Shown: positions 46,108 through 55,300 of the stretch, in pieces
Layout: every line of letters begins with the position of its first letter
Numbering within the stretch: position 1 is the stretch's first letter
Assembly: GCA_014905635.1 (NCBI GenBank)
Contig: CM026547.1
Coordinates: forward strand, 3,472,001 to 3,536,000
Direction of reading: 5' to 3'
Length of the DNA stretch: 64,000 nt
Origin: Scenedesmus sp. PABB004
Taxonomy: Eukaryota
Translations under genes and position numbers: made by a program
The notes under the pieces: model-generated
Seen by the model: only the letters and a program-made list of their open reading frames with translations
What the model was told of the DNA's origin: nothing
Databases searched by the model: none

Positions 46108-46544
46108 TGGCGGGCCTGGGCCAGGCCTGGGCGAAGCCTGGGGGGCCCGCGCGCTGGCAGTGCTGGCCAGGCACGGCGGTCCTGCAAAGCGAAACCTCGT
46201 GCGTGCCACGCAGCGCCCCCCCCCCACTTCCGACAGCCTCGGCCGTCCTGTCACTGGCCACCGCGGCCACCGCGCCTCCTCAGGGCAGCAGCAGCACGCG
46301 CCGCCATCACCGCGCCGCCGTGCGCACGGCCTGCCCGCCCGGTCGCGTTGGCCGCGGCCACGCGGCGTGTTGCATCTGCTGCCGTGCCTGCCGGTCGCTG
46401 GAGCCTGCGGTCTCGCGCGCAGCCCATGCGCCGTTCGCCGCGCGCAGCGGCGGCGGCCGGCGGCCCTGCAAGCCACCTGGCGGCATGCGGCTGCTGAAAC
46501 CTGGCGGCCCGCGCCACCACGTCTGCATGTCGGTGGCTGCTGCC

Positions 46545-48888
46545 ATGGCGGGTGACGGCGCCGCCGCGGGCGGCCCGCGGCGCATCGTGCTGTGGCTGCG
46601 CAACGACCTGCGCCTGCGCGACAGCGCGGTCGTCGCGGCGGCGGTGGCCAAGGTCAAGGCGCGGCATGCGGACGAGGTGCTGCCGGTGTACTGCTACGAC
46701 CCGCGCTTCTTCGCGCTGAGCCCCTGGGGCAACACCAAGACCGGGCCCCACCGCGCGGCGTTCCTGCAGCAGTGCGTGGCCGACCTGCGCGGCAGCCTGC
46801 GCGCGGTGGGCAGCGACCTGCTGGTGGCCGTCGGGCGGCCGGAGGAGGTGCTGCCGGCGGCGCTGGAGGGCGCGGCGCCGGGCGGCGGCCTGGTGCTGAC
46901 GCAGCAGGAGGTGACGTCGGAGGAGGCGGCGGTGGACGCCAAGGTGGCGCGCGCGCTCAAGGGCCGCGCGCAGCTCGTGCGGCTGTGGGGGCCGTCGCTG
47001 TTCCACGTTGACGACCTGCCCTTTGGCGAGGGCCTGGCGACCATGCCCAGCGTGTTCACGCCGTTCCGGGAGAAGGTGGAGAAGCAGTGCAGCGTGCGTG
47101 CGGAGCTGCCCGCGCCGGCGGCGGGCGAGCTGCCGCTGCCGGCGGCGCTGGCGCCCGCGCTGGCGGCGCAGCTGCGCGAGGAGCTGCCGGGCTGGGAGCA
47201 GCTGCCCTGGCCGGCGGGCCACGCGCCGCAGCGGCCGGCGCCTCACCCGCAGGCGGCGCTGCAGTTCAAGGTGCGCGGCGCGGCGCCGCGGCTCGCTGGC
47301 CAGACCGCACGCACCCCTCTGCCAGAACAGCAGCCAGGCAGCGCGGGCCTTAAGATCACACCTCCCAGCCGCGTGCGGCTGTGCCCATGAGGTGGCATTG
47401 AGTCATACCCGCGCGACAGCGAGCAGCCTGGCCCCCGCCTGCTGCAGGCGGGGTGCCCAGCGTCCCCGTGGTACAGCCGCCGGCGCAGCTGAGCCGCCCG
47501 GCTGGCCTCAAAGCCGGGGAGACACGCACTGCTGCCAGCGGCGGCGCGCTGACGCGCGCTAACGCGTGCTGCCGCCGCTGCCGCGGACTGCGCCCGCCCG
47601 CGCAGGGCGGCGAGTCCGAGGCGCTCGCGCGGCTGCGCTACTACCTGTGGGACACCGACCTGGTGGCCGAGTACTTCAACGTGCGCAACGGCATGCGCGG
47701 CGGCGACTACTCAACAAAGGTGCGCGCATGGCGCCGCAGTCAGCGCAGCTCGTGCCGGCGTGCCTCGCCCCTGACGTCTCACCCCGAACCCGCGCCCCGC
47801 CCCGCCGCGCCGCGTGGTCAGTTTGCGCCGTGGCTGGCGGCGGGGTGCCTGTCGCCGCGCAGCGTGTACCACGAGCTCAAGCGCTACGAGGCGCAGCGCA
47901 CCGCCAACAAGAGCACCTACTGGGTCGTCTTTGAGCTGCTGGTGCGAGACTTTTACAGGTGCGCAGGACGTTCACACAGATGCGGCGCGGTTGCTGTGTT
48001 GGGGACAGACAGGCAGAGCTGGCTGTGCGCAGGGCGTGCGCTGGCCCTCGGCACCCCTCAGACGCGCGCCGCTGCCGTCCCGACCGCGCGCCGCCGCCCC
48101 GCCGCCGCCTCCGGTCGTGCGTGCTTTGACAGGTTTTACGCGATGCGCCAGGGCTCCCGCATCTTCAAGCCGGGCGGCCCCGCCGGGCTGCGGCTGCCCT
48201 GGAGCGCCGACCCGGAGCTCTGGGAGCGCTGGGTGAGCGGAACCACCGGCATCCCGCTGGTGGACGCCAACATGCGCGAGCTGGCCGCCACGGGTGAGCG
48301 TGCGCTTGCACGCCGCAGCAAGGGCCGCCGCCGCGGGGCAGCGCGGCGTGTCGCGCTCGGGCAGCGGCCGAGCGTCGACCTGCCTCCCCCTCGCCCCGCG
48401 CCCCGCGCGCCTGGGCAGGCTGGATGTCCAACCGCGGGCGCCAGAACGTTGCCAGCTACCTCGCGCTGGACCTGGGCGTCGACTGGCGGCGCGGCGCGGA
48501 CTGGTTTGAGCACGCGCTGCTGGACTATGACGTCGCGTCCAACTGGGGCAACTGGGTCGCCGCGGCGGGGCTGACGGGCGGGCGCGTCAACCACTTCAAC
48601 ATGGCCAAGCAGTCCAAGGACTACGACCCGGACGGCGACTACGTGCGCGCGTGGCTGCCGGAGCTGAGGAACGTGCCCGCGCCGCGCGTGCACGAGCCCT
48701 GGCTCATGTCCAAGGACGAGCAGGCGCGCTACGGGTGTGCCGTCGGCACCGACTACCCCGCGCCCATCCCCGCGGCGCGCTTCGGGCGCCCGCACGGCGG
48801 CAGCGGCCGCGTCGGCGGCGACCCCTCCGCCAGCGTCGACCGGGAGAAAGCAGCGTCCAAGCGCATGCCGAGCTCAGAGCGCTCGTGA
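46545..48888 (+). CDS. CRY-DASH: Cryptochrome DASH copy 1 (variant motif ELLVRDFY; upstream in-frame ATGs at 46485 and 46527)
   Basis: [80 protein letters not shown]; 5 exons. Confidence 0.92.
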
Positions 48889-49443
48889 CGACGCTGGCCG
48901 CACCTGGTGCCCTGTGCCCTTGCAGCGCAGCCCGCCTGTGCCCTGCGGGCCGGCTGGCAGGCGTTCGTGTGCGCGGCGCCAAGTGGTCTGTCTCACGGAC
49001 GTGCTCGCAGCTGGAGCTGCACCGCGCCTGCGTCGCGCACCAGCAGGCATCGCGCGCAGCCACTCGCGGTGCTGTGCCGCGCCTGGCGACCCCGGGATCT
49101 CCGCGCGCGCTCGACTACTCTCTGACTGGCCTGACGGAGCCCCCAGATTGTCATCCTGGCGCTGGCGTCGATAGTGCGACCGGCGGGCGCGGCGGCTGCC
49201 AGCCTCACGTGCTCGGTGCGGCGGCTGCGGCGCCGGGGCCGCGCGGCCGCCCAGCGCGGCTGGTGGGCTTCTGCCACGGCTCGGAGCACCGCCTGACCAC
49301 CGCTGGCGCCGCGCCCGCTGCCGCCGCCGGTGCCGCAGGCGCCGCACGCGGGTCGCACCGCCCGCGCAGCAGCGCGGCGCTACAGCAGCCCAGCCCGGCT
49401 GAGGGCCGGCGGCCCGCGCCACGTCTGCGTGTCGGCAACGGCC

Positions 49444-51848
49444 ATGGCGGGTGACGGCGCCGCCGCGGGCGGCCCGCGGCGCATCGTGCTGTGGCTGCGC
49501 AACGACCTGCGCCTGCGCGACAGCGCGGTCGTCGCGGCGGCGGTGGCCAAGGTCAAGGCGCGGCATGCGGACGAGGTGCTGCCGGTGTACTGCTACGACC
49601 CGCGCTTCTTCGCGCTGAGCCCCTGGGGCAACACCAAGACCGGGCCCCACCGCGCGGCGTTCCTGCAGCAGTGCGTGGCCGACCTGCGCGGCAGCCTGCG
49701 CGCGGTGGGCAGCGACCTGCTGGTGGCCGTCGGGCGGCCGGAGGAGGTGCTGCCGGCGGCGCTGGAGGGCGCGGCGCCGGGCGGCGGCCTGGTGCTGACG
49801 CAGCAGGAGGTGACGTCGGAGGAGGCGGCGGTGGACGCCAAGGTGGCGCGCGCGCTCAAGGGCCGCGCGCAGCTCGTGCGGCTGTGGGGGCCGTCGCTGT
49901 TCCACGTTGACGATCTGCCCTTTGGCGAGGGCCTGGCGACCATGCCCAGCGTGTTCACGCCGTTCCGGGAGAAGGTGGAGAAGCAGTGCAGCGTGCGTGC
50001 GGAGCTGCCCGCGCCGGCGGCGGGCGAGCTGCCGCTGCCGGCGGCGCTGGCGCCCGCGCTGGCGGCGCAGCTGCGCGAGGAGCTGCCGGGCTGGGAGCAG
50101 CTGCCCTGGCCGGCGGGCCACGCGCCGCAGCGGCCGGCGCCTCACCCGCAGGCGGCGCTGCAGTTCAAGGTGCGCGGCGCGGCGCCGCGGCTCGCTGGCC
50201 AGACCGCACGCACCCCTCTGCCAGAACAGCAGCCAGGCAGCGCGGGCCTTAAGATCACACCTCCCAGCCGCGTGCGGCTGTGCCCATGAGGTGGCATTGA
50301 GTCATACCCGCGCGACAGCGAGCAGCCTGGCCCCCGCCTGCTGCAGGCGGGGTGCCCAGCGTCCCCGTGGTACAGCCGCCGGCGCAGCTGAGCCGCCCGG
50401 CTGGCCTCAAAGCCGGGGAGACACGCACTGCTGCCAGCGGCGGCGCGCTAACGCGTGCTGCCGCCGCTGCCGCGGACTGCGCCCGCCCGCGCAGGGCGGC
50501 GAGTCCGAGGCGCTCGCGCGGCTGCGCTACTACCTGTGGGACACCGACCTGGTGGCCGAGTACTTCAACGTGCGCAACGGCATGCTCGGCGGCGACTACT
50601 CAACAAAGGTGCGCGCATGGCGCCGCAGTCAGCGCAGCTCGTGCCGGCGTGCCTCGCCCCTGACGTCTCACCCCGAACCCGCGCCCCGCCCCGCCGCGCC
50701 GCGTGGTCAGTTTGCGCCGTGGCTGGCGGCGGGGTGCCTGTCGCCGCGCAGCGTGTACCACGAGCTCAAGCGCTACGAGGCGCAGCGCACCGCCAACAAG
50801 AGCACCTACTGGGTCGTCTTTGAGCTCATCTGGCGCGACTTCTTCAGGTGCGATCCGGCCGCAGCTGCAGGCTCGGCCGCTGCGACAGCTCCGTGCCGTC
50901 AGAGCACAGCTGGACTGGCGCACGGTATGTGCCCGCGCTGGCCGTGTCCTCCCCTCTCTGGCCGCCGCCGACCGCGCGCCGCCGCCCCGCCGCCGCCTCC
51001 GGTCGTGCGTGCTTTGACAGGTTTTACGCGATGCGCCAGGGCTCCCGCATCTTCAAGCCGGGCGGCCCCGCCGGGCTGCGGCTGCCCTGGAGCGCCGACC
51101 CGGAGCTCTGGGAGCGCTGGGTGAGCGGAACCACCGGCATCCCGCTGGTGGACGCCAACATGCGCGAGCTGGCCGCCACGGGTGAGCGTGCGCTTGCACG
51201 CCGCAGCAAGGGCCGCCGCCGCGGGGCAGCGCGGCGTGTCGCGCTCGGGCAGCGGCCGAGCGTCGACCTGCCTCCCCCGCGCCCCGCGCCCCGCGCGCCT
51301 GGGCAGGCTGGATGTCCAACCGCGGGCGCCAGAACGTTGCCAGCTACCTCGCGCTGGACCTGGGCGTCGACTGGCGGCGCGGCGCGGACTGGTTTGAGCA
51401 CGCGCTGCTGGACTATGACGTCGCGTCCAACTGGGGCAACTGGGTCGCCGCGGCGGGGCTGACGGGCGGGCGCGTCAACCACTTCAACATGGCCAAGCAG
51501 TCCAAGGACTACGACCCGGACGGCGACTACGTGCGCGCGTGGCTGCCGGAGCTGAGGAACGTGCCCGCGCCGCGCGTGCACGAGCCCTGGCTCATGTCCA
51601 AGGACGAGCAGGCGCGCTACGGGTGTGCCGTCGGCACCGACTACCCCGCGCCCATCCCCGCGGCGCGCTTCGGGCGCCCGCACGCCGCCGGCGGGCCGCA
51701 CCGCAGCGGCGGCGGCGGCGACGCGCGGGGCTACCGCGCGGGCACGGGCGACCGCGCGAGCCGCGGCGGCGGGCGCAGCGGGCGCGGCGGCGGGCGCGGC
51801 GGCGGGCGCGGCAGCAGGCCGCGCAGCGAGTTTGACCGCTACGGCTGA
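49444..51848 (+). CDS. CRY-DASH: Cryptochrome DASH copy 2 (canonical [11 protein letters not shown]-rich tail)
   Basis: Same motifs and exon structure as copy 1; ends ...[29 protein letters not shown]. Confidence 0.93.
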
Positions 51849-52358: not shown

Positions 52359-55300
52359 TCAGTCGTCGCCGATGTAGTAGTACGTCCCCGCGTCCTTCTG
52401 CTCGCGGTCCTTGGTGCTGTTGAGCTTGTTGATGCGGGGGCGGTAGTTGGTGGGGTCGCGGCGGAACGTGATGTCGAGGTTGGCCAGGAACGAGTTCATG
52501 CCCGTGAGCAGGCTCTGCGGCGTGCGCGCGGTCGCGTCGCGCGAGGGCGTGCCCTCGTACACGATCACGCGGTCGGCGAGGTAGGTGGCCATGATGAAGT
52601 CGTGCTCCACGATGAACGCCGTCTTCTTGCTGTGCATGATGAAGCGCTTGATGACCTGGCGGGCGGCAGCGGCAGCAGCATGGAGCCAGCCAGCCAGGGA
52701 GGGCAGGTGAGTGTGTGTGTAGGGGGCACATGGCGGGTGAGCGGGCGAGAGGGGGAGAGAGCGGGAGAGAGCGGGAGAGGCAGCGGCGCGGCGCGGCGTG
52801 TGTGCTGAGTGCGCGCGCGGCGGCGCGCGCCTTTGAGGCCATGATGCGCTGCTCGCTGTCGAGGTAGGCGCTGGGCTCGTCGATGAGGTAGATGTCGGCC
52901 GGCTGCCCCAGGCACAGCGCGAGCGCGACGCGCTGCAGCTCGCCGCCCGACAGGTTTTGCACCTCCAGGTCCATCAGCGGCTCGATCGTCATCGGCTTCA
53001 TGACGTCGCTCACAAACTGCGGCGGCGCACGCACGCGCACGCGGCGCGGGCGGCGGGCGGCGGGCCGCAGCGGCGGCGTGGGCGTGGGCGGCAGCGCGCG
53101 CGCGAGTCCGGGCGCGCGGCGCGGCGCTGCACAGCACGCGCGGCGCGCGGCGCGCGCGCGCGGCAGGCGGCGCGCGCCTGCGGGTGGAGGTAGCTGTCGC
53201 GGATCTTCTTGTGCAGCAGCTGCCGCACGGAGCCCTCGAACTTGGGGCTGATCTTCTGCGGCTTGTAGCTCACGTTGAAGGTCGGCATGTCGGCGTCGCC
53301 CTGCGCGCGCGCATTCGCGCGCGCGCGCACGACACGTCAGCGCGCCGCCGCGGCCGCTGCACACCCGCACGCCCCAGCCACCACTTGCCCTGCCCCCCCC
53401 CCCCTCCCTCTCCCTCTGTGCGCGCTGCGCGCCTCGTCGGGCGTGAGCATGCCGGCGAGCATGCGGATGAAGGTCGTCTTGCCCGTCCCGTTCTCGCCGA
53501 GCATGACCAGGATCTCGCTGTCAGTGAACTCGCCCTCCTCCACGCGCATCGTGAAGTTGCCCTGAACACACACGCGCGTCACGCGTCGCGCGGCGGGCGC
53601 GGGCGCGCGCGCGAGCGCGGCGCTGCCGTTGTCACTGGCGGCGGCGGCGGCGGCGAGCCCGCGCGCGGCGAGGGGCGGGCGCGCGGCGCGGCCGGCGCGC
53701 GCGCGGCGGCGGGCGCGCGCACGAGCGTCTTGGTCATGGCCGGGTACTGGTAGCGCAGGAACTTCTTGACCTCCTCCTCCTTGGTGTCCGTCTCGGCGAC
53801 CTTGAATGTCAGCCCCTCCTCGCGGAAGCGCAGGTTCTCGGTCGGCACAAAGCCTGGCGCGGCGGCGGCGGCGCGTGAGCGGCGGTGCGGCGCGTGAGCG
53901 GCGGCGCGGCGGGCGCCGGCCACTGCCTCGGACCTGCCCCACCGCGCGGGCTGGCAGGCCCTGCCGGCGCGCCGCGCGGAGCTGGCTGCAGGCCGCGCCC
54001 GCCCGCCGTGCTGGCCCCCCCGCAGGCGGGGCGGCGGCTGCGGCGGCGGGTCACCGGCGAGGAAAATGTTGATGCCCTCGCGCACGCTGAAGGGCAGCGT
54101 GACGACGCCGTAGGCGCCGGGCTTGCCGTAGAGGCAGCAGATGAAGTCGCTGAGGTAGTCGAGCACGCTGAGGTCGTGCTCCACCACGATCACGTAGCGC
54201 TGCTGGTGGCCCTCGCCCTCCGTGCCCAGCAGCTCGCGGATTACCTGGCGCGGGGCGCGGCGCGGCGCGGGGCGGCGCGGCGGCGCGGTCGGTGGTCGGC
54301 GCGGGCGGCGGGCGCCGGCCGAGCTGCGTGCGGCGGCCGCGCCGGCGCCGGTGCCGCGGCGCCGCACCTTTGCGGCGTGGAGGCGCTGGCGCACGTCGAG
54401 GTAGCTGCTGGGCTCGTCGATCATGTACACGTCCGCCGCCTGCGCCGCGACGACCGCGATCGCAAAGCGCTGCAGCTCGCCGCCCGACAGGTGCTCCACG
54501 TTGCGGTCCAGCACCTGCGCGCCCGCGCGCGCGGCGCGCGCGCGGCGTCGGCGCGCCGCCCGCCGCCCCCGCGCGCGCCGCCCCCGCCCCCGCCCCTATG
54601 TCTGCCCCTGCCCCCGCCCCTGCCCCTGCCCCCGCCCCTCCGCCATGCCCCGGTGTGTCGTGCGCCGCCGCGGCGCGCCTGCTCGAGGTCGAGCTTCTTG
54701 AGCAGGTAGGGCTTGATGCCGCGCTGGTCCTTGCCGGTGAGCACCTCGTCCACGTTGCCGCGCACGGCCTTGGGGATGTGGTCCACGTACTGCGGCTTGA
54801 TGACCGCCTTGATGTCGTCCTCGAGCACGCGCGTAAAGTAGTTCTGCGCGCGCGCCGCCGCGAGGCAGAGGGCGGGCGACGCGGCGGCGGCGGCTGCGTG
54901 AGGTGCGCGCGCGGGCGGGCGGGCGGGCAAGACGGCGGGCGGGCGGGCGGGCGGGCGGGCGGCCGCGGCGCCGGCGCCGGCGCCGCCCGGCCCCGCGCCG
55001 CGCCCTGCCGCCGCGCTGCGGCTGCGGCTGCGCCGCTGCGCCGCGCCGCTGCGCCGCGCGGCGCGCCGCTGGCCGCGCCTGGAGCTCGCTGCCCCTGAAG
55101 TATGCCAGGATCTCCTCCCAGTCGGGCGGCGAGGCGAAGCGGCCGAGGTTGGGCTTCAGCTTGCCCGCCAGGATCTTCAGCGCCGTGGACTTGCCGATGC
55201 CGTTGGTGCCCACCAGGCCCAGCACCTGCCCGGGGCGCGGCATCGGCATGCTGCGCGCGGGGCAGGCGGCGGCGGCGGCGGCGGCGGTGGGCGCGGCGCG

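Follow-up and report, generated by a model that had tools for sequence, protein, structure and literature searches.

A tandem pair of CRY-DASH1 genes in Scenedesmus sp. PABB004, nearly identical except at the gene ends and an island holding the substrate-pocket tryptophan codon

INTRODUCTION

Why would two neighboring genes be nearly identical, introns included, and yet diverge sharply in a short patch that holds the codon for a conserved pocket tryptophan (Trp)? This question is raised by a tandem pair of CRY-DASH1 cryptochrome genes in the green alga Scenedesmus sp. PABB004. The pair lies in a stretch of 64,000 nucleotides (nt) from contig CM026547.1 of assembly GCA_014905635.1 (positions 3,472,001 to 3,536,000 of the forward strand), which we call the window and number from its first letter. 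The downstream gene has the Trp codon and the upstream gene has a valine (Val) codon in its place. A first-pass annotation, made from the letters of the window, had proposed that gene conversion homogenizes the pair while selection protects a functional switch at this residue.

CRY-DASH proteins and the divergence islands left by gene conversion are both already known. The in vivo role of DASH cryptochromes, repair of single-stranded DNA (ssDNA) or signaling, is a long-standing question. The full-text literature searched, which largely excludes subscription journals, does not describe any conserved DASH1 paralogue that lacks the Trp and sits in tandem with the canonical gene, and the main text of the Scenedesmaceae genome papers searched is without the words cryptochrome, photolyase, or DASH.

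RESULTS AND DISCUSSION

Two tandem genes homogenized around a divergence island

The window has 0 N and a GC content of ~75 to 80%. The two CRY-DASH1 genes lie head to tail on the + strand, copy 1 at 46545-48888 (exons 46545-47270, 47606-47719, 47822-47958, 48133-48293, and 48419-48888, with the ATG at 46545) and copy 2 at 49444-51848 (exons 49444-50169, 50495-50608, 50711-50847, 51021-51181, and 51307-51848). Each has four GT-AG introns and an open spliced frame, giving proteins of 535 amino acids (aa) for copy 1 and 559 aa for copy 2.

Outside the island and the gene ends, the copies differ by 3 substitutions and one 10-nt insertion/deletion (indel) over ~2.1 kb, introns included. Homogenized tract A (46542-47937, + strand; partner 49441-50826) covers exon 1 through most of exon 3, with introns 1 and 2, and contains one synonymous difference (47015), one missense difference (47697), and the indel, which is in intron 1. 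Homogenized tract B (48080-48796, + strand; partner 50968-51684) covers the final 53 nt of intron 3 through most of exon 5 and contains a single-base difference in intron 4 (48391). The missense base turns a leucine codon into an arginine codon in copy 1 (47696-47698), which reads NGMRGG where copy 2 reads NGMLGG. As a single base in a freshly homogenized tract, it may be a recent mutation or a sequence error.

The divergence island lies between the two tracts. In copy 1 it spans 142 nt (47938-48079), made up of the final 21 nt of exon 3 and the initial 121 nt of intron 3; its counterpart in copy 2 (50827-50967) takes in the initial 120 nt of intron 3. The island starts one base ahead of the codon preceding the Trp/Val codon. 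Copy 1 reads ELLVRDFY, with GTG at 47942-47944, and copy 2 reads ELIWRDFF, with the family consensus residue encoded by TGG at 50831-50833. Within the 21 exonic nt there are 8 differences, which produce 3 amino acid changes and 3 synonymous changes among the 4 codons with a shared residue. Four third positions differ and the 6 first and second positions of Arg-Asp-Phe are unchanged, numbers that are small. The copy 1 patch also uses the rare codon CGA, which is found in 0 of the 54 Arg codons of copy 2.

These positions and motifs agree with the first-pass annotation, which had also described a diverged patch that includes synonymous sites and intron. Its description of the pair as homogenized except at the lesion-binding motif needs amending: the island does sit at the motif, but the copies also differ 5' of their shared start codon and in the C-terminal tail, and the Trp motif is thus not the sole exception to homogenization. 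The copy 1 tail (48797-48888, + strand) is short, has no RG repeats, and lacks the terminal motif conserved in chlorophyte DASH1. The copy 2 tail (51685-51848, + strand) is Arg/Gly-rich, with five RG dipeptides, three of them in RGG, and ends in the terminal motif common to Tetradesmus, Chlamydomonas, and Monoraphidium DASH1.

It is conceivable that the tandem pair, or its near-identity, was produced by collapse or polishing during assembly. Near-identical tracts of 1.4 kb and 0.7 kb are error-prone, and the Leu-to-Arg base could be such an error. We consider an artefact most improbable, given that the flanks and tails are unique, that the window is free of N, that the copy 1 patch sequence is present once in the genome (low-complexity GC runs aside), and that the same architecture is seen in independent assemblies of other algae. 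A third gene as the source of the copy 1 patch was rejected as well, as the other genome matches are low-complexity GC runs and only two strong DASH loci were found.

Intron 3 is 174 nt long in copy 1 (47959-48132) and 173 nt long in copy 2. The copy 1 intron is open in frame, and its retention would add 58 residues with no stop. We withdrew a case for homology between the 5' parts of the two introns: only 2 of 1,000 shuffles reach the observed score, but among 128 real donor-led segments 7 and 31 do so too.

Substrate-pocket and electron-transfer residues

Profile scans were made on single window exons and on full-length relatives rather than on spliced window proteins. For each window exon tested, the best profile was TIGR02765 (DASH), with 146.5, 115.9, 134.6, and 134.1 bits, versus 21.7 to 60.2 bits for the plant-cryptochrome profile TIGR02766. 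The whole-protein cutoff of 317 bits lies above the score of any single exon; the full-length relatives P0127 (Trp) and P0003 (Cys) pass it with 522.7 and 450.2 bits. The closest solved structures are those of Arabidopsis CRY3 (AtCRY3; PDB 2VTB/2IJG) and cyanobacterial DASH proteins, including Synechocystis CRY-DASH (1NP7).

Pocket residues were mapped by sequence alignment to these solved structures. The Trp/Val site aligns with position 277 of E. coli photolyase, the Trp with which it had originally been equated, and with AtCRY3 329 in chain numbering (W328 in papers) and Synechocystis 292. The five active-site residues have been given as E274, W277, N341, M345, and W384 for E. coli and as E325, W328, N391, Q395, and Y434 for AtCRY3 (PMC5812317), and an identical E. 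coli set appears in PMC8476157; bioRxiv 10.1101/2025.08.21.671244 brings no further information about the pocket. Both copies keep the equivalents of AtCRY3 E325, N391, Q395, N428, R392, and R446. The residues of the region binding flavin adenine dinucleotide (FAD) are the same in both. So are the electron-transfer Trp columns at AtCRY3 W356, W409, and W432, among them the DASH-type Synechocystis W320 position; this numbering is one that we assumed and then matched to the alignment. The first-pass annotation had described the FAD-binding motifs and the putative Trp triad as retained in both copies, and the alignment agrees. The Gln that both have at the Q395 position (substrate position 1) is a DASH feature according to Table 1 of PMC7560933.

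The second aromatic residue of the pocket is another matter. At the Y434 position (W384 in E. coli), both copies have Ala, and the chlorophyte rows printed have Ala or Ser. Over 225 aligned rows this column holds 115 A, 61 Y, and 28 S; a residue other than Tyr is, judging from the alignment, a trait of the algal DASH1 group that extends beyond this locus. Tyr434 is regarded in PMC7560933 as typical of DASH, and among the matches listed for prokaryotic DASH, Tyr is found at this position in 73 of the 73 loci that reach it (117 examined). With Ala here in both copies and Val at the Trp site of copy 1, the pocket is short of one aromatic wall in copy 2, which thus has no canonical repair pocket either, and of both walls in copy 1. 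The proposed switch from a repair-capable to a signaling-only protein finds no support, since the Ala is common to both copies and the review table of PMC8591175 lists no repair of cyclobutane pyrimidine dimers (CPD) for Chlamydomonas CRY-DASH1.

Trp-less DASH1 genes in other algae

The same split, mostly with Cys in place of Trp, occurs in related algae. In three assemblies of Tetradesmus obliquus, gene models of 1,106 to 1,107 residues (P0001, P0122, and P0123) fuse two DASH genes, with ELLCRDFF in the first half and ELIWRDFF in the second, which is the order seen in the window. These fused annotations hide a Cys-type paralogue. A real read-through fusion protein of this kind is disfavored, because copy 1 has a stop and separate intron-free Trp-type open reading frames (ORFs) exist. 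In Scenedesmus sp. NREL 46B-D3, a Cys-type and a Trp-type protein carry consecutive accessions, with a contig of equal size, and one Cys-type and one Trp-type metagenomic ORF both list a longest contig of 181,957. A further candidate pair, P0350 and P0256 (shared value 10,483), was dropped, as P0350 does not extend over the Trp site and may represent the Trp gene's downstream exon. A metagenome scan with the chlorophyte-type pattern gave 7 loci and no tandem pairs; six loci were of the Trp type and one was interrupted by an intron before the site.

A search of short genomic ORFs returned 98 proteins (56 with Trp, 10 with Cys, 2 with Val, 1 with Ile, and 29 without the motif), so that Trp is replaced in 13 of the 69 motif-bearing rows. 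In a tree of these fragments, which rests on few columns and a quick search, most Cys types fall in one Scenedesmaceae-like group together with the window pair (SH support, 91). P0251 (Cys) and P0289 (Trp), although from different sources, are identical over 85 residues, including the tail of intron 1, and then differ at the two codons that differ between the window copies; they probably come from a single species. The Leu320 and Tyr325 of copy 1 are found in P0251 too, and the fragment tree places the group of P0251 as sister to the window pair (SH support, 83).

Trp-less DASH1 proteins are also present in Tetraselmis sp. GSL018, where Thr takes the place of Trp and a transcriptome member exists, in a pedinophyte with Val, in a dinoflagellate cluster with Ala, and on further eukaryote contigs. 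The first-pass annotation had called for a search of algal proteomes for ELLVRD-type proteins; besides the 2 Val rows among the short ORFs, ELLVRDFF is present in one 32-member eukaryote cluster. On the tree of 74 chosen rows, the site has changed state at least 8 times. The replacements are C, V, T, A, and I only (16 of 225 rows, redundant cluster members included). In neither the 225-row nor the 69-row set were R, G, S, or L seen, although each is one step from TGG. As a prokaryotic control, 185,579 genomes were scanned with a pattern requiring the codon at the site to end in a pyrimidine, a form that takes in all Cys codons and roughly half of the codons for the other replacements. It gave 0 matches, against at least 117 when the pattern had TGG instead. 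Loss of Trp goes with a non-aromatic residue at the Y434 position in 15 of 16 rows, versus 129 of 197 (Fisher p = 0.024), a lead only, as the rows are phylogenetically non-independent.

One Cys sub-clade (P0248, P0249, P0252, P0254, and P0269; SH support, 99) has a new Trp three residues downstream of the lost one, and most of its members have also gained a Trp four residues upstream. These new residues possibly represent a rebuilt pocket.

Taken together, the alignments indicate that the Trp-less DASH1 variant is real across species. As it occurs in several algal lineages and is masked by fused gene models, a whole class of paralogues may have been overlooked. For the Scenedesmaceae, 38 long-read assemblies have been announced (abstract of PMC13315243).

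Concerted evolution of the two copies

The two Tetradesmus copies differ in patches (the N terminus, 141-182, 295-321, and the C terminus, in window copy 2 numbering). We chose the protected patches from these differences, which gave 67 patch columns, with residues 320 and 321 left out, and 346 columns outside the patches. The 346-column tree sorts the genes by species: the two T. obliquus copies pair to the exclusion of the NREL Cys type (support values, 98/94), the window copies join each other (100/98), and a clade of window and Tetradesmus Trp types is rejected (approximately unbiased [AU] test, p = 1.4e-5). In the 67-column tree, the Cys types of different species form a group (100/99), and the two window copies fall with the Trp types (81/83). 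The whole-protein tree has the window pair outside the Tetradesmus group, within a chlorophyte DASH1 group with SH support of 99.

These trees, which follow species or copy type depending on the region, and the recurrence of a Trp-less gene beside a Trp gene in other Scenedesmaceae-like algae lend the original proposal of gene conversion around a selected island more support than the window by itself could give. The island bears the divergence-peak signature described in PMC3924837, a review that counts large indels among the barriers to conversion. For the window genome, the simplest reading would be that copy 2 overwrote copy 1 in all protected patches, sparing only Leu320, the Trp site, Tyr325, and both ends. 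We favor orthology of copy 1 with the Cys type. Intron 2 is identical between the window copies (47720-47821 and 50609-50710), and most related genomic ORFs of both types read through its site; it may be a lineage-specific gain that was spread by conversion.

Several results weigh against a shared, selected origin of the Trp-less copies. The AU test on the patch columns leaves a Tetradesmus-only duplication unrejected (p = 0.20), and only one cleanly polarized site speaks for the shared duplication. Copy 1 has Val rather than Cys, and it has an intron at the intron 3 site; the 14 Cys-type ORFs all read through this site and 16 Trp-type ORFs stop there (ORFs picked by eye and non-independent). 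Intron 3 begins only 15 nt past the Trp/Val codon, and a difference in intron 3 between the copies of the relatives would itself be a barrier to conversion, in which case the position of the island need not reflect selection. For this reason we withdrew an argument that the relatives keep the island without help from the intron. The arginine at a hydrophobic column in copy 1 is found in 1 of 225 aligned rows and could be damage. Among transcripts, the Trp-less type of Scenedesmaceae was not encountered: the T. obliquus cluster has two intron-free full-length Logan members, both of the Trp type. Lastly, the Trp-less proteins P0039, P0197, and P0205 from other lineages retain an RG-rich tail, which means that loss of Trp and loss of the tail are not always coupled.

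Part of this evidence would suit a parallel origin, in which the window pair was duplicated separately, or copy 1 was once fully overwritten (Trp and intron 3 included), and Trp was then lost anew to Val under similar selection, with the same function as a result. The Val, the intron, the place of the window pair in the whole-protein tree, and the unrejected AU alternative all point this way, and the eight state changes on the 74-row tree suggest that the loss arises readily. Against it stand a gene order and a tail loss that are the same as in T. obliquus and the Leu320 and Tyr325 that copy 1 has in common with the Cys-type P0251, at the same breakpoint; the lean of the patch tree toward Trp types was counted on this side as well. 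We regard a parallel origin as unlikely.

Alternatively, the island could be neutral, with conversion tracts stalling at the intron 3 mismatch and copy 1 being a redundant or decaying gene that tolerates Trp-to-Val and Leu-to-Arg as damage. Most of the island is intron, its exonic part is confined to the 21 nt before the donor site, and large indels are, as noted above, a known barrier to conversion. A randomly placed 142-nt gap would cover the Trp/Val codon with p = 0.066 and would start no more than 4 nt before it with p = 0.002, the latter being a post hoc figure. The Arg at a hydrophobic column and the rare CGA codon would also suit decay. However, the frame, the splice sites, and the invariant Arg-Asp-Phe are retained despite the third-position changes, and Cys is conserved over several algal sub-clades with no sign of drift. 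Introns 1, 2, and 4 have been homogenized between the copies, so introns alone do not halt tracts at this locus. We consider neutral decay quite unlikely, and shielding by the adjoining intron 3 difference may still contribute to where tracts end.

Proposed history and function

Our preferred explanation begins with an old tandem duplication of chlorophyte CRY-DASH1 in Scenedesmaceae-like algae. The downstream copy would have stayed canonical, with the pocket Trp and the RGG tail, and the upstream copy would have lost both, with Cys in the relatives and Val here at the Trp site. Repeated interlocus gene conversion would keep the genes alike, in the window genome mainly from copy 2 to copy 1. 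Tracts that restore Trp would go unfixed, so that the site persists as a divergence island, and the adjoining intron 3 mismatch would assist in stopping tracts. This history is fairly well supported, and we think it likely to be correct.

As to function, copy 1 would bind FAD and methenyltetrahydrofolate (MTHF) and be photoreducible, because the residues concerned are unchanged. Having lost both aromatic pocket walls and the basic tail, it should bind nucleic acid, whether a flipped-out base, ssDNA, or RNA, more weakly or differently. In E. coli photolyase, the changes W277R and W277E lower substrate affinity about a hundred-fold, and RGG tails are often RNA-binding. The title of Li and Sancar (1990) states that W277 mutations alter selectivity and leave the quantum yield unaffected (reference list of PMC10512686). 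A second protected patch in Tetradesmus spans the loop equivalent to AtCRY3 194-205, which is listed among the DNA contacts (PMC5812317); the Cys type loses basic residues there and has Asp at the K205 position. Altered or lost nucleic acid binding would fit copy 1 better than lost catalysis. Copy 1 may then be a light-responsive regulator or competitor beside a nucleic acid-binding copy 2, probably in the chloroplast like Chlamydomonas CRY-DASH1. There is no obvious need of the CRY-DASH1 pair for CPD repair in the nucleus, since the genome also carries a distinct class II CPD photolyase-like gene and further members of the family. Selection at the site, the direction of conversion, and the function of copy 1 are what we infer from these comparisons. 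If the history holds, we think this functional part probable; for history and function as a whole, our confidence is slightly better than even.

It is also possible that the primary difference between the copies lies in targeting or expression, through N-terminal extensions and promoters, and that the Trp change is secondary tuning of substrate, with both copies still repairing or binding single-stranded nucleic acid. The upstream sequences do differ, with in-frame upstream ATGs in copy 1 and none in copy 2. The intact quantum yield that the title of Li and Sancar (1990) gives for W277 mutants and the E325, N391, Q395, R392, and R446 equivalents kept by both copies would agree with continued activity. 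This leaves unexplained why conversion spares the codon in at least two lineages and why the Tetradesmus Cys type loses basic residues in a DNA-contact loop, and we hold it to be very unlikely.

A wider reading, which we offer only tentatively and on which we would not rely, is that algal DASH1, with its Tyr434 wall gone, repeatedly yields a selected Trp-less class (C, V, T, A, or I) whose opened pocket would accept a small ligand or partner peptide in place of a flipped base, and that in Scenedesmaceae this class would act as a light-dependent antagonist of the nucleic acid-binding copy. If true, it would be a further independent shift from photolyase to photoreceptor, parallel to that of plant CRY1.

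Whatever its function, the pair is a natural minimal-difference pair, as only four residues of the core (Leu/Arg 273, Ile/Leu 320, Trp/Val 321, and Phe/Tyr 325), together with the RGG tail, separate the two proteins. With almost all background differences erased by conversion, what the pocket Trp and the tail each contribute becomes directly testable.

Gene starts and other loci

Upstream of copy 1, in-frame ATGs are found at 46485 and 46527, and a short Arg/Ala-rich frame starts from an out-of-frame ATG at 46426. No ATG is present between the copy 1 stop and the copy 2 start (48889-49443). An open frame leads into copy 2 (49297-49443, + strand), with an in-frame CTG at 49303; it resembles a transit peptide and may encode one, and a non-AUG start for copy 2 is a possibility. 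Several database models of algal DASH1 likewise begin at the domain.

The next gene lies on the - strand (52365-52655 and upstream to ~54500). Its short C-terminal piece has no Pfam match; we take the C terminus encoded at 52365-52655 to resemble ABCE1/RLI1. A 159-nt internal repeat (52826/54363) would suit two ABC domains. Elsewhere in the genome, identical matches 3.4 kb apart on contig C29 (G000:C29:179749-183285) suggest another tandem duplication. Other photolyase/cryptochrome loci comprise a plant-CRY-like locus on C2, one with a (6-4)/animal-like motif on C6, the class II photolyase-like gene on C13, two unclassified loci on C76, and a weak DASH-like locus on C13 near 1.96 Mb.

Comparison with known systems

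Chlamydomonas reinhardtii CRY-DASH1 is described as a UV-A receptor of the chloroplast, with D1, CP43, and CHLI1 repressed by it post-transcriptionally (Rredhi et al. 2021 and 2024, as given in PMC8591175 and PMC11711948). It belongs to the same chlorophyte DASH1 clade as the window copies, and DASH1 of Chlamydomonas incerta resembles copy 2 in having Trp at the site and an RG-rich tail, with Ser at the Y434 position. In contrast to the window, where copy 1 lacks both Trp and tail, the volvocine rows show a gene of a single type. Chlamydomonas CRY-DASH2 is set apart as a separate protein by description only.

Arabidopsis CRY3 and Synechocystis CRY-DASH share with both window copies the E325, N391, Q395, N428, and W356/W409/W432 positions. 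They differ from both at Y434, which is Ala in the window, and from copy 1 at W328, which is Val. In plant CRY1 and CRY2, the same pocket Trp is replaced (by Leu, L296, in CRY1), and so is the second aromatic residue, in a change from repair to signaling (PMC6378743). These plant proteins belong to another subfamily, as the TIGR02766 scores fall far below those for TIGR02765, and their likeness to copy 1 would be a parallel change, not membership.

The human red/green opsin pair is the closest parallel for the evolutionary pattern. The effect of the divergent site has been measured for the opsins, whereas that for the window pair is deduced, and here an intron mismatch lies beside the site. 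Like the CRY-DASH1 genes, the opsin genes are tandem paralogues homogenized by conversion, with a divergence peak at a functional site that is shared across species (Teshima and Innan model, PMC3924837).

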